Part shown: positions 8,345 through 55,396 of the stretch, piece after piece
How positions within the stretch are numbered: the stretch's first letter is position 1
How the letters are laid out: every line of letters begins with the position of its first letter
NCBI RefSeq assembly: GCF_044324875.1
Contig: NZ_CP172185.1
Source of the DNA: Escherichia coli
GTDB lineage: Bacteria; Pseudomonadota; Gammaproteobacteria; Enterobacterales; Enterobacteriaceae
Strand: one strand, 5' to 3'
Length of the DNA: 64,000 nucleotides
Notes under the pieces: generated by a model
Told to the model about the DNA's origin: nothing
Database searches by the model: none
The model's input: only the letters and a program-made list of their open reading frames with translations
Program-made: the position numbers and the translations under genes

Positions 8345-9285
8345 TCCACGGTTCAGGCCTGTGGGCATGATAAGACGCGTCAGCGTCGCATCAGGCATCT
8401 GCGCACGGTGTCGGATGCGGCGCGAGCGCCTTATCTGACCTACGGTTCAGACCTGTAGGCATGATAAGAGGCACCAGCGTCGCATCAGGCATCTGCGCAC
8501 GGTGTCGGATGCGGCGCGAGCGCCTTATCCGACCTACGGTTCAGGCCTGTAGGCATGATAAGACGCGCCAGCGTCGTATCAGGCATCTGCGCACGGTGTC
8601 GGATGCGGCGCGAGCGCCTTATCCGACCTACGGTTCAGGCCTGTAGGCATGATAAGACGCACCAGCGTCGCATCAGGCATCTGCGCACGGTGTCGGATGC
8701 GGCGCGAGCGCCTTATCCGACCTACGGTTCAGACCTGTAGGCATGATAAGACGCGCCAGCGTCGCATCAGGCATCTGCGCATGGTGTCGGATGCGGCGCG
8801 AGCGCCTTATCCGACCTACGGTTCAGGCCTGTAGGCATGATAAGACGCACCAGCGTCGCATCAGGCATCGGCGCACGGTGTCGGATGCGGCGCGAGCGCC
8901 TTATCCGACCTACGGTTCAGGCCTGTAGGCATGATAAGACGCGCCAGCGTCGTATCAGGCATCTGCGCACGGTGTCGGATGCGGCGCGAGCGCCTTATCC
9001 GACCTACGGTTCAGACCTGTAGGCATGATAAGACGCGCCAGCGTCGCATCAGGCATCGGCGCACGGTGTCGGATGCGGCGCGAGCGCCTTATCCGACCTA
9101 CGGTTCAGGCCTGTAGGCATGATAAGACGCGTCAGCGTCGCATCAGGCATCGGCGCACGGTGTCGGATGCGGCGCGAGCGCCTTATCCGACCTACGGTTC
9201 AGGCCTGTAGGCATGATAAGACGCGTCAGCGTCGCATCAGGCATCGGCGCACGGTGTCGGATGCGCCACACGACGCATCCGACAA
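8345..9285. repeat. Tandem BIME array, about 10 copies of a 94-bp unit, each with two inverted REP palindromes
   Basis: Unit atgataagacgc(g/a)(c/t)cagcgtcgcatcaggcat...tgtcggatgcggcgcgagcgccttatccgacctacggttcag(g/a)cctgtaggc recurs every 94 bp from about 8367 to 9213. Confidence 0.88.
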
Positions 9286-13870: not shown

Positions 13871-13910
13871 ATTGTCCTCGTCATTGTTATCATTTGTAGG
13901 GTCGAGATTG

Positions 13911-14376
13911 TTGTCGGATGCGACGCTATGCGTCTTATCCGACCTACAGTTCAGTTCACCCCGCAGGCCTGATAAGCCGCGTCAGCGTCGCATCAGGCAT
14001 CGGTTGTCGGATGCGACGCCATGCGTCTTATCCGACCTACAGTTCAGTTCACCCCGTAGGCCTGATAAGTCGCGTCAGCGGCGCATCAGGCATCGGTTGT
14101 CGGATGCGACGCCATACGTCTTATCCGACCTACAGTTCAGCACGCCCCGTAGGCCTGATAAGCCGCGTCAGCGGCGCATCAGGCATCGGTTGTCGGATGC
14201 GACGCTATGCGTCTTATCCGACCTACAGTTCAGTTCACCCCGTAGGCCTGATAAGCCGCGTCAGCGGCGCATCAGGCATCGGTTGTCGGATGCGACGCTA
14301 TGCGTCTTATCCGACCTACAGTTCAGTTCATCCCGTAGGCCTGATAAGCCGCGTCAGCGGCGCATCAGGCATCGGT
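13911..14376. repeat. Tandem BIME array, about 5 copies of a 93-bp unit, in prpB-prpC spacer
   Basis: ttgtcggatgcgacgc(t/c)atgcgtcttatccgacctacagttcag...ggcctgataagccgcgtcagcg(t/g)cgcatcaggcatcgg repeated. Confidence 0.85.
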
Positions 14377-14402
14377 TGTCGAATACAACCAACGGGCGTT
14401 TT

Positions 14403-15293
14403 TTATTTCGCCTGGCTACGGGCAAACAGGTCGTCGAGCTTCTCTTCGTACTGGTAATAGTTGATGCTTTCGTACAGTTCGTTGCGGGTCTGCATGGTGT
14501 CGATGACGCTTTTCTGCGTGCCTTCCTGACGCAGGACGTTGTAGACATGTTCGGCGGCGCGGTTCATGGCGCGAAACGCTGAAAGCGGGTACAGCGCCAT
14601 TGCAACATGGGCACTGCGTAATTCATCGGTAGTAAACAGCGGTGTTGCGCCAAATTCGGTAATGTTGGCGAGGATTGGCACCTGCACCGCATCGGCAAAC
14701 TGGCGGTACATAGCGAGTTCGGTAATCGCCTCCGGGAACAACATCTCGGCACCCGCTTCAACATAGGCCCGCGCACGCTCGATCGCCGCATCCAGCCCTT
14801 CAACCGCCAGCGCATCGGTGCGCGCCATGATCACAAAATCAGGATCGGTTTTCGCATCCACCGCCGCGCGGATCCGATCCACCATCTCCTCTTTCGAGAC
14901 GATCGCTTTATTCGGGCGATGGCCGCAGCGTTTCGCACCAACCTGATCTTCAATATGCAATCCCGCCGCACCGGCTTTAATCATCGATTTCACGGTGCGC
15001 GCAACGTTAAAAGCAGAAGAACCAAAACCGATATCCGCATCTACCAGCAGCGGCAGCGAGCAGACGTCGGTGATACGGCGAATGTCGGTCAGCACGTCAT
15101 CAAGGGTAGAAATACCGAGATCGGGCAGCCCCAGCGAACCTGCCGCCACGCCACCGCCGGAAAGATAAATCGCCTGATATCCGGCACGCTGCGCCAACAG
15201 CGCATGGTTAGCGTTGATGGTGCCAACAATCTGCAATGGATTTTCTTTAGTCAGTGCAGCGCGAAACGCTTTACCTGGAGAGTGTAGAGACAT
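14403..15293 (-). CDS. prpB: 2-methylisocitrate lyase, 296 aa
   Basis: Protein recognised as PrpB ([34 protein letters not shown]...). Confidence 0.95.
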
Positions 15294-15339
15294 AGCCCAT
15301 CCTTTGTTATCAACTTGTTATTTGCGTTAATAAAGACAA

Positions 15340-15355
15340 AGCAAGGGGTGTGCCA
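15340..15355 (-). promoter_or_regulatory. sigma-54 promoter of prpBCDE (minus strand TGGCAC-N5-TTGCT)
   Basis: Plus strand agcaaggggtgtgcca; reverse complement gives GG at -24 and GC at -12 with correct spacing, about 47 bp upstream of prpB ATG; prpBCDE is known to be sigma-54/PrpR dependent. Confidence 0.6.
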
Positions 15356-15531
15356 CAATTGCCTGAATAAAATTAAATGTTTTATTTCAATTTGTTAGAG
15401 ATAAAGTCATGAAGTAATCCGCAAATATGCGTTTCAGTTAACGTTTCAGGCAATGTTTCACCGCGTTTCATTGCAACAATTATGAAACAAGACTAAACCC
15501 AATATTCAGTTTCTTAACTTTGCGGTGCGCT

Positions 15532-17118
15532 ATGGCACATCCACCACGGCTGAATGACGACAAACCGGTTATCTGGACGGTATCGGTGACGCGCCTGTTC
15601 GAGCTGTTTCGCGATATCAGCCTCGAGTTTGATCATCTGGCGAACATTACCCCTATCCAGCTTGGCTTTGAAAAAGCGGTGACCTACATCCGCAAGAAAC
15701 TGGCAAGCGAACGCTGTGACGCCATCATCGCTGCTGGCTCTAACGGCGCATATCTTAAAAGCCGCCTGTCAGTGCCAGTTATTTTGATTAAACCGAGCGG
15801 CTACGATGTGTTGCAGGCACTGGCAAAAGCCGGAAAACTCACCTCTTCTATCGGCGTTGTCACTTATCAGGAAACCATTCCAGCGCTGGTGGCGTTTCAA
15901 AAAACCTTTAATTTGCGCCTCGACCAACGTAGCTACATTACAGAGGAAGACGCACGCGGGCAGATTAACGAGCTGAAAGCTAACGGCACCGAAGCGGTGG
16001 TCGGCGCAGGGCTGATTACCGATTTGGCAGAAGAAGCCGGAATGACCGGAATTTTTATCTATTCCGCCGCCACCGTGCGCCAGGCATTCAGCGATGCGCT
16101 GGATATGACGCGCATGTCGTTACGCCATAACACTCACGATGCCACCCGTAACGCCCTGCGTACTCGTTACGTGCTGGGCGATATGCTCGGTCAATCACCA
16201 CAGATGGAACAGGTACGGCAGACTATTTTGCTGTATGCCCGCTCCAGTGCAGCGGTGTTGATTGAAGGGGAAACGGGGACGGGCAAAGAGCTGGCGGCCC
16301 AGGCGATTCATCGGGAATATTTTGCCCGCCACGATGCGCGACAGGGCAAAAAGTCACATCCGTTTGTTGCCGTCAACTGCGGGGCGATTGCCGAATCGCT
16401 GCTGGAGGCAGAGCTGTTTGGCTATGAGGAAGGGGCGTTTACCGGCTCGCGACGCGGAGGTCGCGCCGGGCTGTTCGAAATCGCCCACGGTGGTACGCTG
16501 TTTCTGGATGAGATTGGCGAAATGCCGCTACCTTTGCAGACTCGCCTGTTACGGGTGCTGGAAGAAAAAGAGGTCACCCGCGTCGGCGGGCATCAGCCTG
16601 TTCCGGTGGATGTGCGAGTCATTAGCGCCACTCACTGCAATCTGGAAGAAGATATGCGGCAAGGGCAGTTTCGCCGTGATCTGTTTTATCGGCTGAGTAT
16701 TTTGCGTCTGCAATTGCCACCACTGCGCGAGCGGGTGACGGATATTCTGCCGCTGGCGGAAAGCTTTTTGAAAGTGTCTCTGGCGGCGCTCTCCGCCCCG
16801 TTTTCTGCCGCATTACGCCAGGGATTACAGGCAAGCGAAACCGTGCTGGTGCACTACGACTGGCCGGGCAATATTCGTGAACTGCGCAATATGATGGAGC
16901 GACTGGCGCTGTTTTTAAGTGTGGAACCGACGCCGGATTTAACGCCGCAATTTTTGCAGCTGCTACTGCCGGAACTGGCGCGCGAGTCGGCGAAAATTCC
17001 CGCCCCATCCTTGCTGACACCACTACAGGCACTGGAGAAATTTAATGGCGATAAAACAGCAGCGGCGAATTATTTAGGCATCAGCCGGACGACGTTCTGG
17101 CGGCGGCTGAAAAGCTGA
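15532..17118 (+). CDS. prpR: sigma-54 dependent activator of prp operon, 528 aa (start [12 protein letters not shown])
   Basis: AAA+ sigma-54 activator motifs ([13 protein letters not shown]) and C-terminal HTH; divergent from prpB. Confidence 0.93.
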
Positions 17119-17215
17119 ACTGCCGAATGCAGCGCGAACGCTTTCTCCGGCATAAATTTCAATAGATGATCACCGATAAACTTACGCATCGGGGATGTTT
17201 ACATAGGGTTCAGAA

Positions 17216-17491
17216 TTACTTCTTCTTATAAATATTTGCCGTGCCGTGGATCTTATTGTCAGTTTGACCAGAGGTCAGTACCAACACATCAGCCCCTTTT
17301 TCATCCGCTTTTTTGATCAAATCTTCTTTCGCATCTGCGGTCGACATTTCATTACTGGTTGAAATATCACCTATTTTTTCATATTGCGATTCAACCTTTT
17401 CAAATTCCGCTTTGGTCATTAATTCTGCGGCATAGACATTGGTAACGGCAAACGCTAACGCACCGACTAACATTTTAGAGATTATTTTCAT
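17216..17491 (-). CDS. yahO: DUF1471 periplasmic stress protein, 91 aa
   Basis: Signal peptide plus recognised YahO sequence. Confidence 0.85.
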
Positions 17492-17637
17492 ATTACGGCT
17501 CCAGAGTTGTTATCACACTATCACCCACCCACATTATTGGGTTGATTAATAATTAGTTCAGTCAGGGCATAAACGCCAGTAACCGGAAATAAGACACTTT
17601 GTGATCTCTCTCGCACCCGATTATTTTTGGTAGAAAT

Positions 17638-18309
17638 ATGATGAAGTTACTTCACTTATTTATGGATGAAATCACTATGGATCCTTTGCACGCCGTTTAT
17701 CTGACCGTAGGACTGTTCGTGATTACTTTTTTTAATCCGGGAGCCAATCTCTTTGTGGTAGTACAAACCAGCCTGGCTTCCGGTCGACGCGCAGGAGTGC
17801 TGACCGGACTGGGCGTGGCGTTGGGCGATGCATTTTATTCCGGGTTGGGTTTGTTTGGTCTTGCAACGCTAATTACGCAGTGTGAGGAGATTTTTTCGCT
17901 TATCAGAATCGTTGGCGGCGCTTATCTCTTATGGTTTGCGTGGTGCAGCATGCGCCGCCAGTCAACACCGCAAATGAGCACACTACAACAACCGATTAGC
18001 GCCCCCTGGTATGTTTTTTTTCGACGTGGATTAATTACCGATCTCTCTAACCCGCAAACCGTTTTATTTTTTATCAGTATTTTCTCAGTAACATTAAATG
18101 CCGAAACACCAACATGGGCACGTTTAATGGCCTGGGCGGGGATTGTGCTCGCATCAGTTATCTGGCGCGTTTTTCTTAGTCAGGCGTTTTCTTTGCCCGC
18201 TGTGCGTCGTGCTTATGGGCGTATGCAACGCGTTGCCAGTCGGGTTATTGGTGCAATTATTGGTATATTCGCGCTACGCCTGATTTACGAAGGGGTGATG
18301 CAGCGGTGA
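17638..18309 (+). CDS. yahN: LysE/RhtB-family amino acid exporter, 223 aa
   Basis: Multi-TM protein recognised as YahN. Confidence 0.85.
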   Translation: MMKLLHLFMDEITMDPLHAVYLTVGLFVITFFNPGANLFVVVQTSLASGRRAGVLTGLGVALGDAFYSGLGLFGLATLITQCEEIFSLIRIVGGAYLLWFAWCSMRRQSTPQMSTLQQPISAPWYVFFRRGLITDLSNPQTVLFFISIFSVTLNAETPTWARLMAWAGIVLASVIWRVFLSQAFSLPAVRRAYGRMQRVASRVIGAIIGIFALRLIYEGVMQR

Positions 18310-18325
18310 GCAGATAATTTACTCT

Positions 18326-18571
18326 CTACGTAATCAACCTGATTTGCCAAATCCCGGTCATCGGCGATGATAGCCCCCGTAATGCGTGGTCCTTATTTCC
18401 GATAAGTTTACTTGAGTCTTTAGCTTCCCATTTCAGCCCACTCTCCCCTGTATGGGCTTTTTTCATTGCTCTGACCCGCCCTGAATAGCCAAACAATGGC
18501 AATGTTTCACTTTGCAGGGATGATAATAAGGGGAGCTGATTCAGAAGAGTTATGAAAAGTTGGACCGCCAT
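18326..18571 (-). CDS. yahM: small uncharacterised protein, 81 aa (start MAVQLFITLL)
   Basis: Position and size match yahM as I recall it; weak evidence. Confidence 0.45.
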   Translation of the reverse strand: MAVQLFITLLNQLPLLSSLQSETLPLFGYSGRVRAMKKAHTGESGLKWEAKDSSKLIGNKDHALRGLSSPMTGIWQIRLIT

Positions 18572-18983
18572 CGAGGCCTCGAACCCCGTACCATACAACA
18601 ATCCTGGTTGTCGTCTGCTCTTCCTGATGAGCTAATGGCGGTTTTTGATATGAGCCTTACAGCATATTTTCTGTCAGGCTTGAGTGCGATGCGTAAGGTA
18701 CAGAAAAGACCCCACACAAACATGATGGAATTATGATTTTTTTCATATGAATGTCAACCCACACATTCACAAAACACCTGCATGAGATCATTTTTTATAC
18801 ACCACATAGCTGCAAAACTACTACTGGTGATTTTTTAAGCGAAGCGTCGCCGATCACAACAAAATATCGGCGAAAAAGGCGGTGGAATGCCATTTGGCAT
18901 ACGGATATACAGATGAAATGATCACCTGCTTTGCGATTCACTCTCTGCTGGAATAACAACTTGCAGGTGGAACCCTTTCTGAA

Positions 18984-19799
18984 CTAAAGAGTGTAGCGGA
19001 TTTTAACGTGCTTATTTACAGGATAATATCTGTCACCTAATTCCTGCACTCTATTCGATATCCATTCGTTTAATCGCGCATCATCTCTGTATGTTTTTAC
19101 GTCCAGAACAGAGAGCAATAACATCACCAGCGATTCAGGAAAAACAGGGTAGATATTTTTTAAGTGTAATAATAATCCATGCGCAAGCGCCTGCTTAATT
19201 GGTGCGTCGCTCTCCGGAATAGACGACATTTCGCGAAGCCATTTTTCCACATGCATACACTCTTTCCCTTTAGGGAAAAGTCTCAGTAAAGGCATATGGT
19301 GTTCAAGAAGAATACATTTGCAATCTGTTCGCACTGAATCGATAAACTGCACTAATTTCTTAAGCCCGGTAAAGCGTCCAGCCTGCACATTTGCTTTAAT
19401 ATCAAGAAACGCATCATCCTGGTCATATACCCAAACTGTCCCTTTTTGATTTTCAAGTATGCGAAAAACAAACTTAACCGGGTAATCAGGGTAATCCATC
19501 CAGTCATAAAATCCCGGGAAATCATTAAACTGTACATTTATGGTAAGTGCGTTATCGTCTGACCACTCACAGTCTCGTACGGCAGCCATGAGATGAATGA
19601 GTTTGTCATCATCGACTAAATCATCACGACAATCATAAGGATAATCATAATATTGTTTAATCAAAACCTTGAATATATCGACACAGGAAACCAGGGAGCT
19701 TTTGATATCCTCCGGTAACTGATTGTTTTTAACCGTATTAAGTATGCTTTGTTGCGTATATGGCATCAAATTATTGTACGGAGCTTTTAATGATATCAT
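18984..19799 (-). CDS. yahL: uncharacterised protein, 271 aa
   Basis: ORF in expected position; sequence recognised as YahL. Confidence 0.8.
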   Translation of the reverse strand: MISLKAPYNNLMPYTQQSILNTVKNNQLPEDIKSSLVSCVDIFKVLIKQYYDYPYDCRDDLVDDDKLIHLMAAVRDCEWSDDNALTINVQFNDFPGFYDWMDYPDYPVKFVFRILENQKGTVWVYDQDDAFLDIKANVQAGRFTGLKKLVQFIDSVRTDCKCILLEHHMPLLRLFPKGKECMHVEKWLREMSSIPESDAPIKQALAHGLLLHLKNIYPVFPESLVMLLLSVLDVKTYRDDARLNEWISNRVQELGDRYYPVNKHVKIRYTL

Positions 19800-19968
19800 C
19801 GCGATCTCTCTTAAATAAAAATAAACGTCGCAGATAATAAAGCCCTGATTAAACCAGGCACTATCAGAAATCGCTCATAACTAACGTATGAAGTATTGTG
19901 TCCTGGAGGGAGTTAATTTAACAATTTGAATTTACGTTATAGGTTTTACCGCTACTTTGATATTATTT

Positions 19969-20002
19969 CGCTCTCCTTAACTAAAAAGTTAAGTGGAGAG
20001 CG
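19969..20002. other. 34-bp near-perfect palindrome cgctctccttaac-taaaaa-gttaagtggagagcg, 40 bp downstream of yahK stop
   Basis: Seen in sequence; no flanking T-run on either strand. Confidence 0.5.
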
Positions 20003-20041
20003 AAGTTAATATGTTAAACCACAGGGTATTTATTAATTGTT

Positions 20042-21091
20042 TCAGTCTGTTAGTGTGCGATTATCGATAACAAAACGATATTTCACATCTCCTCGCAGCA
20101 TTCGCTCATAGGCTTCATTAATTTGATCGGCCCGAATCATCTCTATATCAGCCACGATGCCATGTTCGGCGCAAAAATCGAGCATCTCCTGTGTTTCTGG
20201 AATGCCGCCAATCATAGAGCCGGCTATCGCGCGGCGTTTCATGATCAGGTTGAAAACTTCCGGCGATTTATGCGGTGTCGCAGGCGCACCAACCAGCGTC
20301 ATGGTGCCATCGCGCTTCAGCAAGGTGGTAAAATCGTCGAGATTATGTGGCGCAGCTACTGTATTCAAAATGAAATCGAAACTCTTCAGATGAGCCGCCA
20401 TCTCATCGGCATTGCGTGAGTTAACAACTTCATCGGCCCCCAGGGCTTTTGCCGCTTCGCGTTTTGCCTCAGAAGTGGTAAATGCCACCACATGTGCCCC
20501 CATCGCGTGGGCCAGCTTAATCCCCATATGTCCCAGACCGCCGATGCCAACCACGCCCACTTTTTTACCCGGCCCGGCCTGCCAGTGACGTAGCGGCGAG
20601 TATGTGGTGATCCCTGCACACAATAAAGGAGCCACCGCCGCCAGCTGCTCTTGCGGGTGACGAATACGCAGAACATATCGCTCATGAACGACGATCTGTT
20701 GTGAGTAGCCGCCCAGCGTATGGCCCGGTTCGTCCGGCGTCGGCGAGTTATAGGTGCCGGTCATGTGATCACAGTAGTTTTCCAGCCCGTCTTCACACTC
20801 TTCGCAATGTTTACAACTGTCGACAATACAGCCGACACCGACCAGATCGCCCGTCGCATGTTTTTCTACCTGATCACCAACGGCTACCACACGCCCCACA
20901 ATTTCATGACCCGGCACGCAGGGGTAAACCGTCCCCGCCCACTCGGAACGGACCTGGTGGATATCGGAATGGCAGACGCCACAGTAAGCGATTTCAATTT
21001 TGACATCATGCGGTCCCGGTTCACGCCTGGTAATATCCATCGGTTCCAGCGGTTGCGTCGCGGAATAAGCACCAATAGCCTTGATATTCAT
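20042..21091 (-). CDS. yahK: NADPH-dependent aldehyde reductase (zinc alcohol dehydrogenase family), 349 aa (start MNIKAIGAYS)
   Basis: GHEIVG and CGVCHSD zinc-ADH motifs; recognised as YahK. Confidence 0.9.
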   Translation of the reverse strand: MNIKAIGAYSATQPLEPMDITRREPGPHDVKIEIAYCGVCHSDIHQVRSEWAGTVYPCVPGHEIVGRVVAVGDQVEKHATGDLVGVGCIVDSCKHCEECEDGLENYCDHMTGTYNSPTPDEPGHTLGGYSQQIVVHERYVLRIRHPQEQLAAVAPLLCAGITTYSPLRHWQAGPGKKVGVVGIGGLGHMGIKLAHAMGAHVVAFTTSEAKREAAKALGADEVVNSRNADEMAAHLKSFDFILNTVAAPHNLDDFTTLLKRDGTMTLVGAPATPHKSPEVFNLIMKRRAIAGSMIGGIPETQEMLDFCAEHGIVADIEMIRADQINEAYERMLRGDVKYRFVIDNRTLTD

Positions 21092-21362
21092 TGCATTCAC
21101 TCCTGTTCGAAGAGGTATCTGGATGATGTGAGGAACGTCTTTGCAGCAAAACTCGCTCATTCAATATAGCCAATGAATGGTTGCCCGTGATGGGCTCTGA
21201 GACGTTGATACCGGAGAGTTTAATGACCAATAGTGGTGTCGTTTTTCGTGGCAGATCACACTTTCTGGCACCAGCGATATCCCTTTTCCGCCTTAAAACC
21301 GGGGCGGTATCGTGACTGGCGAATTAGACTGCCGTGAAATTCAATTATTACGCACACGCCGT

Positions 21363-22010
21363 TTACCCCGCAAAAGAAACACGCAATAACTTTAACTGCC
21401 CGTTAATCATGCCAAATTCCAGTATAGTTGTGCCATCACAAACAGCCGGTGGAATTTGTTCATTAGCCTGCGAACCAATATTCAGCGTAATGCCATCGTC
21501 AGAAATATTCCCCGACATCGCCAGTTCACATATTCCCGTGACGTAGTGGCGCTCCCCTTTCTCTTCGTAATAGAAACGTCCATCATTGAGGGGATAATAT
21601 TTTCTTTTTTGCTCCGCTGGCGTCAGCGAATGACTGAGATAATCATCAATCCATTGGGTACCCGGATGTATCGTGAATTTTGTGACATTATGCAGACGCC
21701 GCATAATGGTTTCTGAATGGCGATCAAATAGTGCTTCTGTGAAGGGTTCAGATTCAGGCAACTCAATCTCAGCGAGAAAGCCGAAATAGGTATCGTAGGG
21801 GAATTTTAAGAAGGTTTTTAGTTTCGTGGCATTCTTTGCACTCAGCGCTTGCTGAAACTTTTGCAATTGCGTTAAGGCATCTTTTTTCTGCTCCGGCGTG
21901 ACCAGGGGCTGTATGCGCACCGCCTCGCATTCGTGTTGTGAATTTCCAGCAGGGCAAGTTGCCAGGACGGCCTGACTCAGAAACAACAGCGATAACCAAA
22001 GAAATTTCAC
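21363..22010 (-). CDS. hypothetical secreted protein, 215 aa, with N-terminal signal peptide
   Basis: ORF with signal peptide MKFLWLSLLFLSQAVLA and GGA-rich RBS region; not recognised as a named K-12 protein. Confidence 0.5.
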   Translation of the reverse strand: MKFLWLSLLFLSQAVLATCPAGNSQHECEAVRIQPLVTPEQKKDALTQLQKFQQALSAKNATKLKTFLKFPYDTYFGFLAEIELPESEPFTEALFDRHSETIMRRLHNVTKFTIHPGTQWIDDYLSHSLTPAEQKRKYYPLNDGRFYYEEKGERHYVTGICELAMSGNISDDGITLNIGSQANEQIPPAVCDGTTILEFGMINGQLKLLRVSFAG

Positions 22011-22129
22011 GGCGTCTATCCATCCCTGGATAAAAAAGATAATCCGCAGTGTACGTCATGGGCAAAACGCAGAGGATATCGGGTTTTAAAATCGGAATAG
22101 TGCCTGCCCGGATATCCTCGCTGATAACG

Positions 22130-23508
22130 TTACACCACACTCCCCCACACCAGTTGTCCTTTATGGAACGTTGCCGTTCTCGGCGAGATACGCGCCACCG
22201 CCTCGGCGGAACAGGAGGCGTCCACCAGCACAAAACTGGCGTCATCCTGCGCTTTGGGCCACACGCGCTCGCCTTTTTCATTCAGCGGCAATACATCGCC
22301 AGTGGCTAAAAACAGCGAACGGGACAAATTCTGTTCGTTAGGGCGAATATAGAGCTGCGCGTACAGATTGGCTTTTTCCAGCATGTCGCCCAGGCCATAA
22401 GGTGACCAGTGGTCAATAACGCTGTCAGTTCCGGTCATGACTTTTACGCCTTTGTCGTGCAACTGTTTGAGCGGCATATGCAGCGTGCCAATCGGCACCG
22501 TCGAGGCGATAGAAATTTGCTGCGCCGCCATCCGGTGCGCCAGTTCATCTACCTGTTGTTCGTTGAGCGTTGCCAACGCAAAGGCGTGACTGATGGTCAG
22601 CTTGCCCTTCAGCTGTGGCGTTTTCTCTACCGTTTCAACCATATAATTGATGGCTGCCACACCTGCCGGAGTGGTTTCGTGCAGGTGAATATCGACGCCT
22701 TTGTCGTAGTCCAGCGCAATCTGAAACATGGTGTCGAGGGATTTTTCCATCGCGCCATCAACACTGGTTGGGTCCAGCCCGCCGACGTAATGCGCGCCCG
22801 CCTGCATCGCTTCACGCATTAAGGGTTCTGATTTCGACAGCAGCAAACCGTGCTGCGGGAAGGCGACGATTTCACACTCGAAGCCCGCCTGACGTCGCGC
22901 CAGCACCGCCTGCAAATTTTGCAGATTTTTCAGGCCGGAAACCGGTTCGATATTGCAGTGGCTGCGGGCAATGGTGGTGCCTTTCGACTGCAATAAATCG
23001 ATCAGTTTTTCCGCTCGTTCCTGAGTGTACGGTTGCAGCTCCGGCAGCATTTTCTGCTCGAGTTTGATCATGTCCTGGATGGTGGTCCTGCCGGGCGATT
23101 GAGCGAGCGCCACGGCCCGCCGTAAAAGGTTTTGTCGAGATGAATATGCATGTCGCGGGTGGTGGGCAGCATCAGCTTACCGCCAGCGTCATAGTGCGGC
23201 AGCGTGGCGTCCGGATGCTGCTTGTTCTCGCGCAGGGCAACAATTTTGCCGTTCTGAATCTCTACGGTCTGGTGCGCCGTGCGGGTCTGTACCGCCACAC
23301 CGTTTTCGTAGTCAAAACCGGTTTCCAGCAGCACGTTGTCGAGATAGTAGTGCGGGTCAGTGATTTTCATGGTGTTATTCGCGTCGCAGTTTAGGGTGCC
23401 AGAGACTGCCGCATGGGCGAGCGGCACAGAGGTACCAAACAGCGCGGCGGCGGTGACCATCTTACAGCTCTGGCTCAGAAACTCACGGCGGCTATTGTTT
23501 TTTTTCAT
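22130..23508 (-). pseudogene. yahJ: Tat-signal amidohydrolase/deaminase split by a frameshift into 146-aa and 327-aa ORFs overlapping at 23068-23113
   Basis: N-fragment has SRREFL twin-arginine motif and HxH metal site; C-fragment continues the amidohydrolase fold in another frame; combined length about 460 aa. Confidence 0.75.
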
Positions 23509-23517
23509 CTTACGTCC

Positions 23518-24468
23518 TTACGTTTTAATAATATGTGTGCCTGTTTCACCGCGCAGCGCCGCAGGCAGGCATTCCGGCGTGGTGATAATCACTTCTTTGC
23601 CGCCCTGCTCCAGGAACGTCAGGCTGGCGATGATTTTTGGCAACATGCTGCCAGGCGGGAAATGCCCTTCCTGCATATAGCGGGTCATGGTGGCAATATC
23701 CACCCGATCCAGCGCCTGCTGCTGCGGCTTGCCAAAGTGAATACACACTTTTTCGACGCCGGTGGTGATCACCAGAATGTCGGCGTGAATTTCACGGGCC
23801 AATAGCGCGGTAGAGAGATCTTTGTCGATAACCGCGTCCACGCTTTGGTAATCCCCCGCTTCACTGCACACCACCGGAATTCCACCGCCGCCCGCGCCAA
23901 TCACCACAAAACCTTGTTGGATCAGCGCCTTAATGGCAGGTGCTTCGACAATACGTTTCGGTTCCGGCGAGGCGACCACGCGGCGATAGCCCCGTCCGGC
24001 ATCTTCAACAAAACGCCAGTCAGGGTTTGCCTTTTGTAATTCGTCACGCTGGCTTTCACTGAAGAATGCGCCGATGGGCTTGGTGGGATGAGCAAATCCC
24101 GGATCGTTTTTATCCACTTCCACCTGAGTCACCACGGTGACGGCTTTTTTCTCGCCGTGACGCGCCAGTCGGTTATTCAGCGCCTGTTGGATCAGGTAGC
24201 CGATGCCACCTTGCGTATCCGCCACACAGTTCGCCAGCGGCGTTAAGGGCAGCCCTTCGCGCTCGTGGGCAATCTCCGCACGGCGTAAATCCAGCCCGAC
24301 CTGCGGCCCGTTGCCGTGGGTCAGCACAATGTCGTAATCGGAAGCCAGCATTTCCAGCACCGTATCGGCGACGGCCTTCACCGCCTCCGCCTGATGCTCA
24401 ATCGACTGGCTGGCGTTATCTTTGATAATGCTGTTGCCACCAATGGCAACGACCACAAGTTCTTTCAT
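23518..24468 (-). CDS. yahI: carbamate kinase-like protein, 316 aa
   Basis: Amino-acid kinase fold (VVAIGGN..., THGNGPQVG) recognised as YahI. Confidence 0.9.
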   Translation of the reverse strand: MKELVVVAIGGNSIIKDNASQSIEHQAEAVKAVADTVLEMLASDYDIVLTHGNGPQVGLDLRRAEIAHEREGLPLTPLANCVADTQGGIGYLIQQALNNRLARHGEKKAVTVVTQVEVDKNDPGFAHPTKPIGAFFSESQRDELQKANPDWRFVEDAGRGYRRVVASPEPKRIVEAPAIKALIQQGFVVIGAGGGGIPVVCSEAGDYQSVDAVIDKDLSTALLAREIHADILVITTGVEKVCIHFGKPQQQALDRVDIATMTRYMQEGHFPPGSMLPKIIASLTFLEQGGKEVIITTPECLPAALRGETGTHIIKT

Positions 24469-24518
24469 GTTGTTATGTCCGCTACAGAGGGTGATGGGGT
24501 TATGACCAACGCCAGACT

Positions 24519-24700
24519 GCCTGATGCGCTACGCTTATCAGGCCTAGAATTCTCGTGCCATTCGTAGGCCGGATAAGGCGTTCACGCCGCATCCGGCAAT
24601 GGTGACAAATGCCTGATGCGCTACGCTTATCAGGCCTACAGATTCTCGCGCCACTCGTAGGCCGGATAAGGCGTTCACGCCGCATCCGGCAGAGACAACG
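24519..24700. repeat. BIME with four REP palindromes between yahG and yahI
   Basis: Two copies of gcctgatgcgctacgcttatcaggcctac...gtaggccggataaggcgttcacgccgcatccggca. Confidence 0.8.
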
Positions 24701-24713
24701 CGCACTTTGCAGG

Positions 24714-26132
24714 TCAGACGCCGTAACGTTCGCACCAGCCAAGAATGGCTTTCTCGAAGCAGGCGAATGGTGGATGCACAATGCCCGCGCCAATCATGCC
24801 GACGCCCGCATCTTTATGGGCGATGGCGGTGTTGATCACCGGCAGAATGCCGCTACTGCCCACGCGGGTTATGTCGATTGCCGACGGCACGCCCATAAAA
24901 CCGAGCAGCGGAATGGTGACGTTGGGATTTTCGCCGAGAGTGATTTCGCGCATCTGGCGGGAGAAATCGATGGCCTCTTCCACCGTACCGCCCACCAGCG
25001 CGACGATTGCAGGCGCGGTCGCCATAGCAAATCCACCAATGCCGTAGGTTTCGGTGATGGCGCTGTCGCCAATATCCAACCCAGAATCTTCCGGCTTATA
25101 ACCGGCAAACATCGGGCCGATGACCTGCTGCGCCGGACCGGTAAACCATTGCCCCGGTAATCCGCTGACCCGCAGGCCGAACTCGACGCCGTTACGCGCC
25201 ATGGTGGTCACCACAGTGCTGTATTCGATGCCGTGCGCCGCATCCATCGCCGCTTTACACATCGCCATCCACGTCGGGCCGGAGAAGTAGTCACTGCTGG
25301 CGACAAACTCAAACACTTCGCGCTGTTGCTCGACGGAGTAGCCCGCCTGAATAATCCCCGGCGTCAGCGCCTGAATCAGCAGCGTCGTCCCGGCGTTATT
25401 GCGGTTATGGCACTCATCGCCCATATGCAGCGCCTGCGCCAGCATTAAGCGCAGATCGATCTCGCCGATAATTTTCATCGCATCGCGCAGCATTGGCCCC
25501 TGCACATCACGCATCCAGTTGAGTCGGTCGATCACGCTCTGGTCGTTAGCGCCCATACGCAAAATCTTTGCCATCTGCTCGCTCATATTGGTGTAAGCGA
25601 TGTTGCCGTAGGTTTTGTTTTTCACGATGTGCATAAACATCGAGGCCGAGGTAACACCCGCCATCGATCCCACGCAGTCATGTTCGTGGCACGGCGAGAA
25701 GGTGATCTCCCCGGAGGCCGCCAGTTCAGCCGCCTCATCGAGATCTTTCGCCAGCCCTTCGAACACCAGCGCTCCGGTGACCGCGCCTTTCATCGCGCCA
25801 CACATTTTTTCCCAGGTGATCGGCGGTCCGGCGTGAAGAATGGTTTTCGGCGTCATACCCGGCACCACGTTAATCGCCTGATCAAAACCAATCAGCACCG
25901 GATGCGACTGGATAATGCGCTCCAAAGCCTGCTGGTTAGCGGCGGCGATTTTGTCTGCCAGCGGCGAATCGGCAATGTTATCCAGCGCCTGCACCACCTG
26001 CATATTGCCCTGCCCCGGCGGCGTCCAGTCGAGTTGAGTCACTTCTACATGCTGCTTTTTCAGGTCATCGCTAAACATGGCGATGCCGACGTTAATAACG
26101 TTCAACGGTTGGCTAAACAGTGACTGGCTCAT
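24714..26132 (-). CDS. yahG: DUF1116 protein, 472 aa (YlbE paralog)
   Basis: Recognised as YahG. Confidence 0.88.
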   Translation of the reverse strand: MSQSLFSQPLNVINVGIAMFSDDLKKQHVEVTQLDWTPPGQGNMQVVQALDNIADSPLADKIAAANQQALERIIQSHPVLIGFDQAINVVPGMTPKTILHAGPPITWEKMCGAMKGAVTGALVFEGLAKDLDEAAELAASGEITFSPCHEHDCVGSMAGVTSASMFMHIVKNKTYGNIAYTNMSEQMAKILRMGANDQSVIDRLNWMRDVQGPMLRDAMKIIGEIDLRLMLAQALHMGDECHNRNNAGTTLLIQALTPGIIQAGYSVEQQREVFEFVASSDYFSGPTWMAMCKAAMDAAHGIEYSTVVTTMARNGVEFGLRVSGLPGQWFTGPAQQVIGPMFAGYKPEDSGLDIGDSAITETYGIGGFAMATAPAIVALVGGTVEEAIDFSRQMREITLGENPNVTIPLLGFMGVPSAIDITRVGSSGILPVINTAIAHKDAGVGMIGAGIVHPPFACFEKAILGWCERYGV

Positions 26133-27679
26133 CAGGCTTCCTCCCCTTTGCAGATAAATTCACGCGCCAGCAATCCGGTATTGGTGCTGCTGCTTGCCAG
26201 AATTACCCCAGCATCAAGCAGCATCTGGCTTTGTTGTTCTAATGATGGCGTATCAAGATCGGTACCCAGCACATAGGCGAGAATGATCAACTCACGTCCT
26301 TCGGCAGCGGCGATCGCTTTCGCTTCTTTGATCGCATCGATGGTGGAGCCGACCGGATCTTCATGCGATCCAAATCCGAGCACAAAATCCATCACGATCA
26401 CCGCCACTTCTGGATCGCGCGCTTCTTCGATCAAGCGACTGATGCGGTTGGTCGGGTCAATCATTGGATGCGGCTTGCCGTTGGTGAAGTCGTCATCACC
26501 AAAGTCGAGGAAGGTGTGTTTGATGCTGCGGCTGATATCTTGCAGGCGGAATTCCGGATCGGGCTGAATGTTGCTGTAGACATCGCCGTGTTTTTCCATC
26601 ACCGCGAACATCGTTTCGTCGCACAGCGTGCCGCCGCAGAACAGGCCACGAATGTATTTCTGTTGCGGTTGCAGGCGAGCGCGCACGTCAGCAATCAATG
26701 GCTGGTTCAGGGTATGCAGGTCGAGATGTTCTTGTTTCACACCGGAGAGCATCACCGCTTTTAGTGCCGCCTCTTTGGTGCCGCGAGCAAACTGTAGCCC
26801 CTGCTCATCCACTGGCGTTTCGCCACGACCGAGGAAGCAGACTACCACTGGCTTACGGCAGGCGCGTGCGCGTTCCAGCACTTTGCGGGCCACCGCAGGC
26901 GCTGGCGGTTTGGAGATAAGCACAATGATTTCAGTTTGCGGATCGTTTTCCAGCATCCCGATGGCGTCGAGCATCATCAGGCCGCCGATTTTCTCGCTCA
27001 GGTCGCGCCCGCCGGTGCCGATCAGTTGCGAAACGCCGCCGCCAAATTCATGAATGCGGACGCTCAGCTCCTGGCTGCCGGTGCCGGATGCGCCAACAAT
27101 ACCGATGTTGCCGCGACGCACGGCGTTACCAAAGCAGAGCGCCGCGCCGTTGATAATCGCCGTACCGCAGTCTGGCCCCATCATCAGCAGCCCTTTTTCG
27201 TGGGCCAACTGTTTGAGCGCCAGTTCATCTTCAACTGAGACGTTATCGGAAAACAGCATCACTTTAAGATCGTTTTGCAGCGCCTGACGCGCTTCGCGAG
27301 CGGCAAACAGACCGTTGACCGAAATCACCGCCAGGTTACTTTCCGGGATATGCTTTTTGGCGCTGGCAATAGTGGCATAGCGTGCTTCATGTGAACCAGT
27401 TTGAGCTTTGGTGTTGAACAGTTCTTCAATCTCCACCAGCAACTGCTCGTTGTCCGCACCCGATTTACCATTGATGACAATCATCAGGTCACCGTTTTTC
27501 GCCTGCTCCAGTTCCGGCGTCAGCAGTCCTAAATTCTTCAGCACACCTTTGTTCATTTCGGTCGCCATCGCCACAAATGCCTGCTCGACGCCGTCGAGTT
27601 TATTTGCACGCGTGGAGATAGACATCAGCGAGACAGAATCAAAATAGGTATTCGGTTTAATGACTATTTTAACTGACAT
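26132..27679 (-). CDS. yahF: FdrA-like CoA-binding / succinyl-CoA-synthetase-like protein, 515 aa
   Basis: Recognised as YahF. Confidence 0.88.
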   Translation of the reverse strand: MSVKIVIKPNTYFDSVSLMSISTRANKLDGVEQAFVAMATEMNKGVLKNLGLLTPELEQAKNGDLMIVINGKSGADNEQLLVEIEELFNTKAQTGSHEARYATIASAKKHIPESNLAVISVNGLFAAREARQALQNDLKVMLFSDNVSVEDELALKQLAHEKGLLMMGPDCGTAIINGAALCFGNAVRRGNIGIVGASGTGSQELSVRIHEFGGGVSQLIGTGGRDLSEKIGGLMMLDAIGMLENDPQTEIIVLISKPPAPAVARKVLERARACRKPVVVCFLGRGETPVDEQGLQFARGTKEAALKAVMLSGVKQEHLDLHTLNQPLIADVRARLQPQQKYIRGLFCGGTLCDETMFAVMEKHGDVYSNIQPDPEFRLQDISRSIKHTFLDFGDDDFTNGKPHPMIDPTNRISRLIEEARDPEVAVIVMDFVLGFGSHEDPVGSTIDAIKEAKAIAAAEGRELIILAYVLGTDLDTPSLEQQSQMLLDAGVILASSSTNTGLLAREFICKGEEA

Positions 27680-28160
27680 AATTCCCTCCGTAGGTTTGGC
27701 TCAGCGCACAACCATCGGCCATGCCATACAGCATGTCGCAGCCGGAACTGGAGCCAATATGTTTAATTTTTTCTATTGCCTGGGTTGAATTCCCAGGGAC
27801 ACCATAAATAATATCGTGAATAAAATGATGAATATTTTCCCGGCAGCGTTGTTGTAATGCGGCTTCCAGCGTTATGGCACTTAATAACGTGGTATTATTT
27901 CTGCCGCGTTGCAGACCGATATAAAATTCCTCTTTGTATTTTTCCGCCGGATGTCCGGAAATAAATAAAATAAGCGCCAGACCTGTTAAATAATCATCGG
28001 CTGATGGCGTAAGGCCAATCCCTAACCCCATCATACTGGCGACCGCTAAGGCGATATTTTTTTTATCGTTTACTTCCTGAATAACTGCCCGTCGTTTAAT
28101 ATGTAATTCTTTATTTAACGCCTGATAAAACGGATTATCGCCGCGATAATTAAACAGGGT
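27669..28160 (-). pseudogene. yahE: C-terminal 164 codons of DUF2877 protein yahE; 5' part replaced by IS1
   Basis: Own translation shows the frame open from the IS1 junction (28160) down to the stop at 27669, with no start codon upstream of the junction. Confidence 0.75.
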
Positions 28161-28175
28161 GGTAATGACTCCAAC

Positions 28176-28679
28176 TTATTGATAGTGTTTTATGTTCAGA
28201 TAATGCCCGATGACTTTGTCATGCAGCTCCACCGATTTTGAGAACGACAGCGACTTCCGTCCCAGCCGTGCCAGGTGCTGCCTCAGATTCAGGTTATGCC
28301 GCTCAATTCGCTGCGTATATCGCTTGCTGATTACGTGCAGCTTTCCCTTCAGGCGGGATTCATACAGTGGCCAGCCATCCGTCATCCATATCACCACGTC
28401 AAAGGGTGACAGCAGGCTCATAAGACGCCCCAGCGTCGCCATAGTGCGTTCACCGAATACGTGCGCAACAACCGTCTTCCGGAGCCTGTCATACGCGTAA
28501 AACAGCCAGCGCTGGCGCGATTTAGCCCCGACATAGCCCCACTGTTCGTCCATTTCCGCGCAGACGATGACGTCACTGCCCGGCTGTATGCGCGAGGTTA
28601 CCGACTGCGGCCTGAGTTTTTTAAGTGACGTAAAATCGTGTTGAGGCCAACGCCCATAATGCGGGCAGTTGCCCGGCAT
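28176..28679 (-). CDS. insB: IS1 InsB reading frame (expressed as InsAB' by -1 frameshift)
   Basis: Recognised InsB sequence. Confidence 0.9.
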
Positions 28680-28873
28680 CCAACGCCATTCATGGCCATA
28701 TCAATGATTTTCTGGTGCGTACCGGGTTGAGAAGCGGTGTAAGTGAACTGCAGTTGCCATGTTTTACGGCAGTGAGAGCAGAGATAGCGCTGATGTCCGG
28801 CGGTGCTTTTGCCGTTACGCACCACCCCGTCAGTAGCTGAACAGGAGGGACAGCTGATAGAAACAGAAGCCAC
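28598..28873 (-). CDS. insA: IS1 InsA, 91 aa, GTG start
   Basis: Recognised InsA ([42 protein letters not shown]...). Confidence 0.93.
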
Positions 28874-28928
28874 TGGAGCACCTCAAAAACACCATCATAC
28901 ACTAAATCAGTAAGTTGGCAGCATCACC

Positions 28929-53684: not shown

Positions 53685-54172
53685 CTGAGGATGTATCTTC
53701 CTGTTCATTTAAGGTCAACTGCCTGACGTTTCTCTCCGAATATTCCATTATATTAATGTTGACTTGTTGACCAGGTGCGCCCTGTATGCTGGCATCAACT
53801 CTCTTTTAGACTGAACACGCCACTCAGTTTCCTCCCTTTGCGACGCAGCCTGCATTTACACTCAAACGGTTAAGATGATAAATGTGGTAAATCTGTTGGT
53901 ACTGACATAAAAACGTTTACGCCACAGGAACGGCCTGATCCACCGGTAACCCCATCGCCGACGTTCGAGTGCCAGTTAGAGTAACGCGCACAGATGACTG
54001 AATGCAGTGCCCTGGCAAAGAGGCCATCGTTCCTGTGACAACTGGCAGTCTTCGTTTAACTTCACTTAATTTGGCTCTTAGGGGGCTTACCGGACAGATG
54101 ACGTACTTACACCTGTTTAATTTTTCATCACTTATTGGGATGAACACCCATAACCATGGTAATGACTCCAAC

Positions 54173-54676
54173 TTATTGATAGTGTTTTATGTTCAGATAA
54201 TGCCCGATGACTTTGTCATGCAGCTCCACCGATTTTGAGAACGACAGCGACTTCCGTCCCAGCCGTGCCAGGTGCTGCCTCAGATTCAGGTTATGCCGCT
54301 CAATTCGCTGCGTATATCGCTTGCTGATTACGTGCAGCTTTCCCTTCAGGCGGGATTCATACAGTGGCCAGCCATCCGTCATCCATATCACCACGTCAAA
54401 GGGTGACAGCAGGCTCATAAGACGCCCCAGCGTCGCCATAGTGCGTTCACCGAATACGTGCGCAACAACCGTCTTCCGGAGCCTGTCATACGCGTAAAAC
54501 AGCCAGCGCTGGCGCGATTTAGCCCCGACATAGCCCCACTGTTCGTCCATTTCCGCGCAGACGATGACGTCACTGCCCGGCTGTATGCGCGAGGTTACCG
54601 ACTGCGGCCTGAGTTTTTTAAGTGACGTAAAATCGTGTTGAGGCCAACGCCCATAATGCGGGCAGTTGCCCGGCAT
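54173..54676 (-). CDS. insB: IS1 InsB reading frame
   Basis: Identical to first copy. Confidence 0.9.
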
Positions 54677-54870
54677 CCAACGCCATTCATGGCCATATCA
54701 ATGATTTTCTGGTGCGTACCGGGTTGAGAAGCGGTGTAAGTGAACTGCAGTTGCCATGTTTTACGGCAGTGAGAGCAGAGATAGCGCTGATGTCCGGCGG
54801 TGCTTTTGCCGTTACGCACCACCCCGTCAGTAGCTGAACAGGAGGGACAGCTGATAGAAACAGAAGCCAC
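54595..54870 (-). CDS. insA: IS1 InsA
   Basis: Identical to first copy. Confidence 0.93.
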
Positions 54871-55396
54871 TGGAGCACCTCAAAAACACCATCATACACT
54901 AAATCAGTAAGTTGGCAGCATCACCCATGAACACCCATAACCATTTTGTGCGGCATGTTAATCCATTAAAACACCTTACTGATTGGCAAATCATCTTTAA
55001 TTATGACTCATGATAGTTTTATATTCTATTTATTATCATTTAAACTTGTTTTTTTACTAGTCCATTACACAACACATTAAGACTATTCCTAACACCTCAG
55101 GGCAAAGTTCCTGGCTAATATAAAATGCAAGTAAGAATTGAACGTTATATTGCCAATAACCTTATGAAACTGAATGTCTTTTTCTTCTTATCAAAAAAGC
55201 AATATTTTCATTTTTTGTAAATATTGACTTAACCATGGAATTCCTTTTCTGTTCACATATTGACACTCATCAGGAAAAAAACATAAATTTAAACCTAATC
55301 GAAATAATTAAAACTTAATCTCGTTTAACCTATATTGATATGTGCTACGTATCTTATTTACTTCCGATTTACTAAAGAAACTGAATGTACCTGTAA

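Follow-up and report, generated by a model that had tools for sequence, protein, structure and literature searches.

The systems closest to the locus described here are the AllFGH oxamic transcarbamylase with AllK of the anaerobic allantoin pathway (PMC11326118, PMC9843812) and, for the protein encoded by yahJ, the AtzC-type N-isopropylammelide isopropylaminohydrolases (6nbo, 2qt3, 4cqb) together with cytosine deaminase CodA. The neighbours of yahJ match the AllF, AllG and AllH Pfam families and carbamate kinase, and RefSeq names the yahE product 'AllH family protein'. However, the yah genes form a locus separate from AllFGH/AllK, and the likeness is one of family membership only. The two AllFGH papers do not mention the yah genes, and no YahJ-like Tat-exported amidohydrolase is described in the anaerobic allantoin pathway. 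YahJ has the HxH motif and the barrel in common with the AtzC-type enzymes and CodA; unlike them, it has an additional N-terminal region as well as a Tat signal, and its gene is broken in the window, by which we mean the whole 64,000-nt stretch of Escherichia coli DNA analysed here.

Our literature search on the function of the yah cluster returned only two descriptions. One places YahJ, with the signal MKESNSRREFLSQSGKMVTAAALFGTSVPLAHA, among predicted Tat substrates whose function is unknown (PMC7549933), and the other assigns yahJ to an uncharacterised y-ome cluster (PMC11551758). No published activity for the yah genes was found in this search. In the extraintestinal pathogenic (ExPEC) strain PCN033, deletion of yahJ put the mutant at a mild competitive disadvantage in mice (competitive index 0.70, p = 0.02; PMC7549933), so yahJ is not neutral in every setting.

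In the window, yahI, yahG and yahF are intact, and the AllH homolog encoded by yahE is truncated next to an IS1 element (Table 1). The corresponding cluster in GCA_900482385.1 (locus L008 below) contains PF27530, PF06545, PF11392 and PF00696, that is, adjacent homologs of AllF, AllG, AllH and carbamate kinase, and a 121-aa PF11392 AllH fragment was called in another locus (L009). Judged by these family assignments, the yah pathway looks like an AllFGH-like carbamoyltransferase combined with a carbamate kinase and an amidohydrolase. Strains with an intact yahJ (WP_000665140.1; BEC1-S17-ESBL-09 and 2021CK-01784) share 99.3% nucleotide identity with the yahJ of the window and have the same gene order: yahK, a gene for a 215-aa hypothetical protein, yahJ, yahI, yahG, yahF and yahE. 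The intact yahJ is b0324 in K-12. The 215-aa ORF between yahJ and yahK (window 21363-22010, minus strand) is annotated as 'hypothetical protein' WP_000670937.1 and has no NCBIfam or Pfam match; its N-terminal end resembles a signal peptide or lipobox (MKFLWLSLLFLSQAVLATC), and it is presumably not part of the yah region of K-12.

Table 1. Features of the yah cluster and its surroundings, in window coordinates.
Feature	Position	Strand	Description and basis
yahJ pseudogene	22130..23508	-	1379 nt vs 1380 nt intact (459 codons + stop); RefSeq match, repaired translation
N-terminal fragment ORF	23068..23508	-	146 aa, ATG start, ends ...KTFYGGPWRSLNRPAGPPSRT (elsewhere given as RSLNRPAGPPSRT)
Longest mechanical C-terminal ORF	22130..23113	-	327 aa, GTG start, begins MALAQSPGRTTIQDMIKLE
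C-terminal fragment as called by gene finders	22130..23071	-	313 aa, start is native M148
1-nt deletion site	23086..23087	-	Gene strand GGCAGG[C]ACCACC; alignment, indel list, codon numbering
HxH metal-binding motif H121-I-H123	23140..23148	-	DMHIHLDK, aligned with EGHTHLDK of 6nbo
Tat signal peptide coding region	23410..23508	-	Residues 1-33 (MKKNNSRREFLSQSCKMVTAAALFGTSVPLAHA); SRREFL read from the sequence
yahI, carbamate kinase family	23518..24468	-	Intact, 316 aa, directly upstream of yahJ; NF009007, 646 bits
yahG (AllG/YlbE family)	24714..26132	-	Intact, 472 aa; PF06545 AllG
yahF/fdrA paralog (AllF family)	26132..27679	-	Intact, 515 aa; NF004760, 488.9 bits
yahE 3' remnant (AllH family)	27669..28160	-	First 372 nt deleted; alignment to L007
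IS1, 768 bp	28161..28928		Replaces 11,263 bp of the comparator strain; NF033558, 145.6 bits
REP/BIME-like array	8348-9265		codB/prpE interval; 94 nt x 9.8 copies
REP/BIME-like array	13910-14381		prpC/prpB interval; 93 nt x 5.1 copies
REP/BIME-like array	24518-24691		yahG/yahI interval; 93 nt x 1.9 copies

The original prediction, made from the window alone, read yahJ as two overlapping ORFs, and the ORF list contains both, on the minus strand. The 46 bp over which they were said to overlap in different frames is the interval 23068..23113, common to the two. The prediction also held that a single missing base splits an amidohydrolase of about 460 aa, and re-inserting one C indeed restores a 459-aa ORF whose translation is free of other lesions. 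Alignment with three intact yahJ alleles, 1,380 nt long in the three fetched strains, places one single-base gap in the window gene and zero further gaps; at the junction, GGCAGGCACCACC of the intact alleles is replaced by GGCAGG-ACCACC in the window (allele sequence across the deletion: GGCAGGACC). The base is missing after gene nt 422, between window positions 23086 and 23087, and is a C on the gene strand and a G on the plus strand. It is the third position of codon 141, where GGC becomes GGA and Gly is kept, and the first altered residue is 142. The N-terminal fragment carries native residues 1-141, then five aberrant ones (PPSRT), then TGA. An indel whose length is not divisible by three is followed by a premature stop after 146 codons, as in a frameshift pseudogene, and the single uninterrupted ORF of about 459 codons of a YahJ-type amidohydrolase is lacking.

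The 46-bp overlap itself is a product only of the rule that takes the longest mechanical ORF. Residues 1-9 of the 327-aa ORF (MALAQSPGR) come from native codons 133-141 read out of frame, and the native sequence resumes at TTIQDM. Gene callers choose the ATG at 23071, whose overlap with the upstream TGA is the 4-nt ATGA (ACATGATC); they call the 313-aa ORF because this TGA happens to overlap native Met148. An AGGA lies only 1 nt upstream of that ATG, a poor Shine-Dalgarno spacing.

Both fragments match one NCBIfam model, NF005312 (PRK06846; 412 positions; curated cut-off 447 bits), the N-terminal one at positions 2-92 with 134.4 bits and the C-terminal one at positions 89-409 with 566.9 bits, alone above the cut-off. 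Since they cover abutting parts of one model, the ORF pair is not a chance arrangement. In the repaired protein, residues 104-454 are homologous to the AtzC-type aminohydrolase 6nbo (E 4e-44); CodA (1k6w) is matched at E 1e-15, and the Pfam matches are Amidohydro_3 and Amidohydro_1. The HxH motif that belongs at the end of barrel strand 1 is present at residues 121-123 and aligns with the AtzC and CodA structures, so the break falls just after that strand, and the motif now lies on a polypeptide separate from the remaining barrel. The twin-arginine motif (S-R-R-x-F-L) is present as SRREFL at residues 6-11, and a Tat signal is predicted.

The 146-aa product retains the Tat signal peptide, the N-terminal beta domain and HxH, and about 310 residues, comprising some seven-eighths of the (beta/alpha)8 barrel and all other catalytic residues, are severed from it. 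Loss of YahJ function is expected, because the Tat signal and HxH are no longer joined to the remainder of the barrel. Neither fragment would be active as a periplasmic enzyme: the N-terminal one would have no barrel, and a C-terminal one re-initiated at the ATGA would have neither an export signal nor the HxH ligands. Some re-initiation at the ATGA is conceivable. As judged from its reading frame, the yahJ of the window is a pseudogene of the NF005312 family, not a functional member.

The same allele recurs in other isolates. The exact 146-aa product is SRB26449.1, present on 31 contigs, and the next accession, SRB26450.1, is the downstream product of 313 aa, on 33 contigs; the truncated 146-aa product is indexed in 33 collection blocks. 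We fetched thirteen loci, from GCA_900482385.1 and GCA_958308375.1 (NCBI) and from at least 10 separate SRA runs. All thirteen have the deletion junction, lack the intact one and carry a yahJ identical to that of the window, so that the lesion is independently reproduced in 13 assemblies from different samples. These loci differ at flanking SNPs (19480, 19304 and 20408) and at a 1-nt indel (17727), which indicates distinct isolates of one clone rather than one copied assembly; divergence between isolates of the clone amounts to at most 2 SNPs per 9.4 kb. When the window is aligned to the comparator strain, the yahJ deletion is the sole frame-breaking intragenic indel in about 32 kb, so the window assembly is not noisy.

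Beyond this clone the allele is rare. Of the 5,426 complete RefSeq E. coli genomes, 5,042 matched a 1,441-nt query at annotated yahJ ('amidohydrolase family protein'), the best matches spanning 1442 nt against the 1441 nt of the query. An 80-mer across the site had no exact match in complete RefSeq E. coli, where the matches listed all span 81 nt, and a junction-centred 40-mer, which seeds only on the deleted allele, was found in 0 of the 5,426 genomes. Reference alleles, to which the original prediction had pointed as a check, show no two-ORF structure at this site in the complete RefSeq E. coli genomes. The 27-nt deletion junction occurred on 0 contigs of the metagenome collection and in 0 GTDB representative genomes; the intact junction, used as a control, was present on 58 metagenome contigs. 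The best identity of the window to any complete E. coli is about 98.5%.

The repaired YahJ of the window is identical to WP_000665140.1 at residues 106-459 and has six amino-acid differences from it in the first 105 residues. Two of these are private to the lineage, E3K (23502) and G15C (23466); both are nonsynonymous and fall within the Tat signal, and two such changes are too few to show relaxed selection. The same deletion occurs on an ENA metagenome contig at 5x coverage (L018), whose haplotype shows 12 differences over 1.7 kb. This contig lacks the private changes of the window clone (nt 7, E3K; nt 43, G15C) and is otherwise nearer to the window allele than any intact allele. The simplest reading of these haplotypes is a single, somewhat older origin of the deletion, followed by divergence, although transfer by recombination or recurrence could also account for L018. 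The deletion would thus have arisen once in a rare E. coli lineage and been inherited clonally from then on. That it arose more than once, in the window clone and in L018, through an unrecognised mutational hotspot or selected loss, is a remote possibility.

A second lesion lies at the other end of the cluster, where a complete IS1 with its transposase occupies a deletion junction. Relative to 2021CK-01784, the window has lost the first 372 nt of yahE, then yahD, yahC, yahB, pdeL, betT, betI, betB and betA, and the first 327 nt of ykgH. The alignment to locus L007 stops at window position 28160 (L007 22014), inside yahE (21523-22386). The junctions are 28160 and 28929, and the flanks of the IS1 differ (...aaacagggt and agagattta...), without a target-site duplication. 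The structure reads as an IS1-mediated adjacent deletion of 11.3 kb, for which differing flanks are expected. If yahE-yahF-yahG-yahI-yahJ is transcribed from upstream of yahE, as the gene layout would suggest, the deletion would have removed the promoter of the cluster. By way of this IS1 deletion, the window strain is also without the genes for conversion of choline to glycine betaine and without the PdeL phosphodiesterase.

The order of the two events can be read from the isolates. L008 shares the yahJ frameshift but retains yahE, yahD, yahC, yahB, pdeL and betT, and it aligns with the window at 99.99% up to the IS1 junction at 28160 and no further. Since L008 carries the frameshift and not the deletion, the frameshift is the older event and the IS1 deletion took place later, in a sub-branch; the reverse order, with the IS1 deletion first and yahJ decay second, is rejected on the same ground. 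GCA_958308375.1 is 100% identical to window 14260-28287, where its contig breaks off, 127 nt into the IS1. A second IS1, at window 54158-54925, is identical to the first over 768 bases and has the same orientation; it is a simple insertion into the intergenic region that separates the ykgL side from ecpR. With only about 91% identity to the IS1 of strain 5283, the two copies represent a different IS1 isoform.

These features resemble the decay driven by insertion sequences in E. coli and Shigella: an IS1 abuts a deletion without target duplication, a point frameshift lies in the same cluster, and a second identical IS1 and an IS21-family insertion occur within the 64 kb. In contrast to that pattern, the pseudogene density of the window is modest, with the one frame-breaking intragenic indel in about 32 kb. 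A Shigella-like, heavily decayed genome, which the IS copies and the identity of about 98.5% had led us to suspect, is not supported, given this single indel and the recorded sources, which say E. coli.

yahJ appears dispensable, as a match is absent from 384 of the 5,426 complete E. coli genomes. Public data hold other truncating yahJ alleles (P0003, P0004, P0005, P0007, P0009, P0013 and P0014), several of which end within a few codons of the site in the window. They are different mutations on different haplotypes: in some the frame shifts at KTF(Y) or following ERAEK, and others seem to have a nonsense change following TTI or MIKL; P0004 reaches the same stop codon as the window allele after an earlier -1 shift. 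Among the truncated yahJ products P0003-P0015, the -1 shift at KTF(Y) was found in ECZU strains, and some of these products may be assembly errors. The closest strain with an intact yahJ, BEC1-S17-ESBL-09, has an internal stop in the neighbouring fdrA/yahF (L001 1-560). From these alleles, the yah cluster seems to have been inactivated repeatedly in E. coli.

Taken with the recurrence of the allele, this makes it very probable that the yahJ lesion is a genuine, heritable loss-of-function allele, created by a spontaneous 1-bp deletion. Neutral decay of a dispensable accessory pathway would be the most likely evolutionary cause. An adaptive version of the same history, in which the mutation is real and first yahJ, then the whole yah/bet region was inactivated under positive selection, is unlikely. 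Two independent lesions in one gene cluster of one lineage, the same deletion on the second haplotype (L018) and the many independent truncating yahJ alleles in public data are what such selection might leave behind. However, the allele is very rare, the sole experimental datum is the mild cost of yahJ loss in infection, and IS1-mediated adjacent deletions are common enough to need no selection.

It is also very unlikely that the two ORFs form a functional split gene, in which the N-terminal fragment (Tat signal and HxH) and the 313-aa re-initiated C-terminal fragment assemble non-covalently and are possibly co-exported by Tat. Tat is a system for the export of complexes in the folded state, the overlap of an in-frame ATG (M148) with the upstream TGA is a classic translational-coupling arrangement, the 313-aa product is predicted by gene callers, and the C-terminal part is free of further lesions. 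Yet this freedom from lesions tells little, because the allele is confined to a rare, recent clone. The AGGA is poorly spaced, 1 nt from the ATG; the break lies inside the barrel just after strand 1, with residues 142-147 lost; and the 5' end of the operon was later deleted in the window, which argues against selection for upkeep of the pathway.

There is next to no chance that the layout is functional through recoding, with a programmed -1 ribosomal frameshift or transcriptional slippage restoring full-length YahJ. The ORFs do overlap, and the second is read in the -1 frame with respect to the first. However, direct inspection of the overlap codons (CGC CCG GCA GGA CCA CCA TCC AGG ACA TGA) found neither an X XXY YYZ heptamer nor an A/T run, and the layout is derived, by a one-base deletion in a single-ORF gene. 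It is also unconserved, being found in 0 of the 5,426 complete genomes, with the metagenome contigs giving 58 intact junctions against 0 deleted ones. We therefore rejected programmed frameshifting. Sequencing or assembly error, by which one base was dropped from a truly intact yahJ, is just as hard to sustain: single-base indels are the usual error type on some platforms and the IS copies within the 64-kb contig suggest long-read data, but the same deletion recurs in the 13 assemblies with differing SNPs, samples and pipelines (NCBI WGS and Logan assemblies of SRA runs), and no second frame-breaking intragenic indel occurs in about 32 kb.

The original prediction had offered a genuine pseudogene and a homopolymer sequencing error as alternatives. 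The first of these stands on the 13 assemblies and their flanking SNPs. The second falls on the same evidence and on the site itself, since the missing C lies between G and A, outside any run, where a homopolymer error does not fit.

The yahJ allele is a case of ordinary lineage-specific gene decay, already deposited in public databases under two CDS annotations. SRB26449.1 and SRB26450.1, deposited as two 'deaminase' CDSs, should be one pseudogene. The locus illustrates the ordered, stepwise decay of a dispensable cluster, in which a point frameshift in yahJ was followed by the 11.3-kb IS1 deletion, which took bet genes and pdeL as well. Both the frameshift and the IS1 junction might be used to mark this rare clone, and natural knock-outs such as the window allele would be useful should a function be established for the yah cluster. 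Beyond annotation, the yahJ split matters little.

Several other features of the window deserve a record. Identity to BEC1-S17-ESBL-09 is 99.4% over 19100-24505 and 96.5% over 24706-26686; the change is located at the yahI/yahG REP array and suggests a recombination breakpoint there and a mosaic ancestry of the region. The array between codB and prpE is about 1 kb long in the window, compared with about 60-150 bp in 2021CK-01784, and a 179-aa 'hypothetical protein' that RefSeq annotates across the prpC-prpB array is probably spurious. One isolate of the window clone (L016, SRR31139564) carries an extra 1-nt deletion in yahN, which encodes a LysE-family transporter, at window 17727, so that 184 aa are called instead of 210. 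The IS21-family element at window 45493-48131 (istA 46364-48010, istB 45592-46590) is absent from comparator strain 5283; it truncates a LysR-family regulator gene (48011-48817), leaving a 268-aa remnant that covers model positions 2-205 only. The inverse autotransporter adhesin gene fdeC (window 38487-42740, minus strand) is an intact ORF of 1,417 aa in the window and is flagged by RefSeq as frameshifted in strain 5283.
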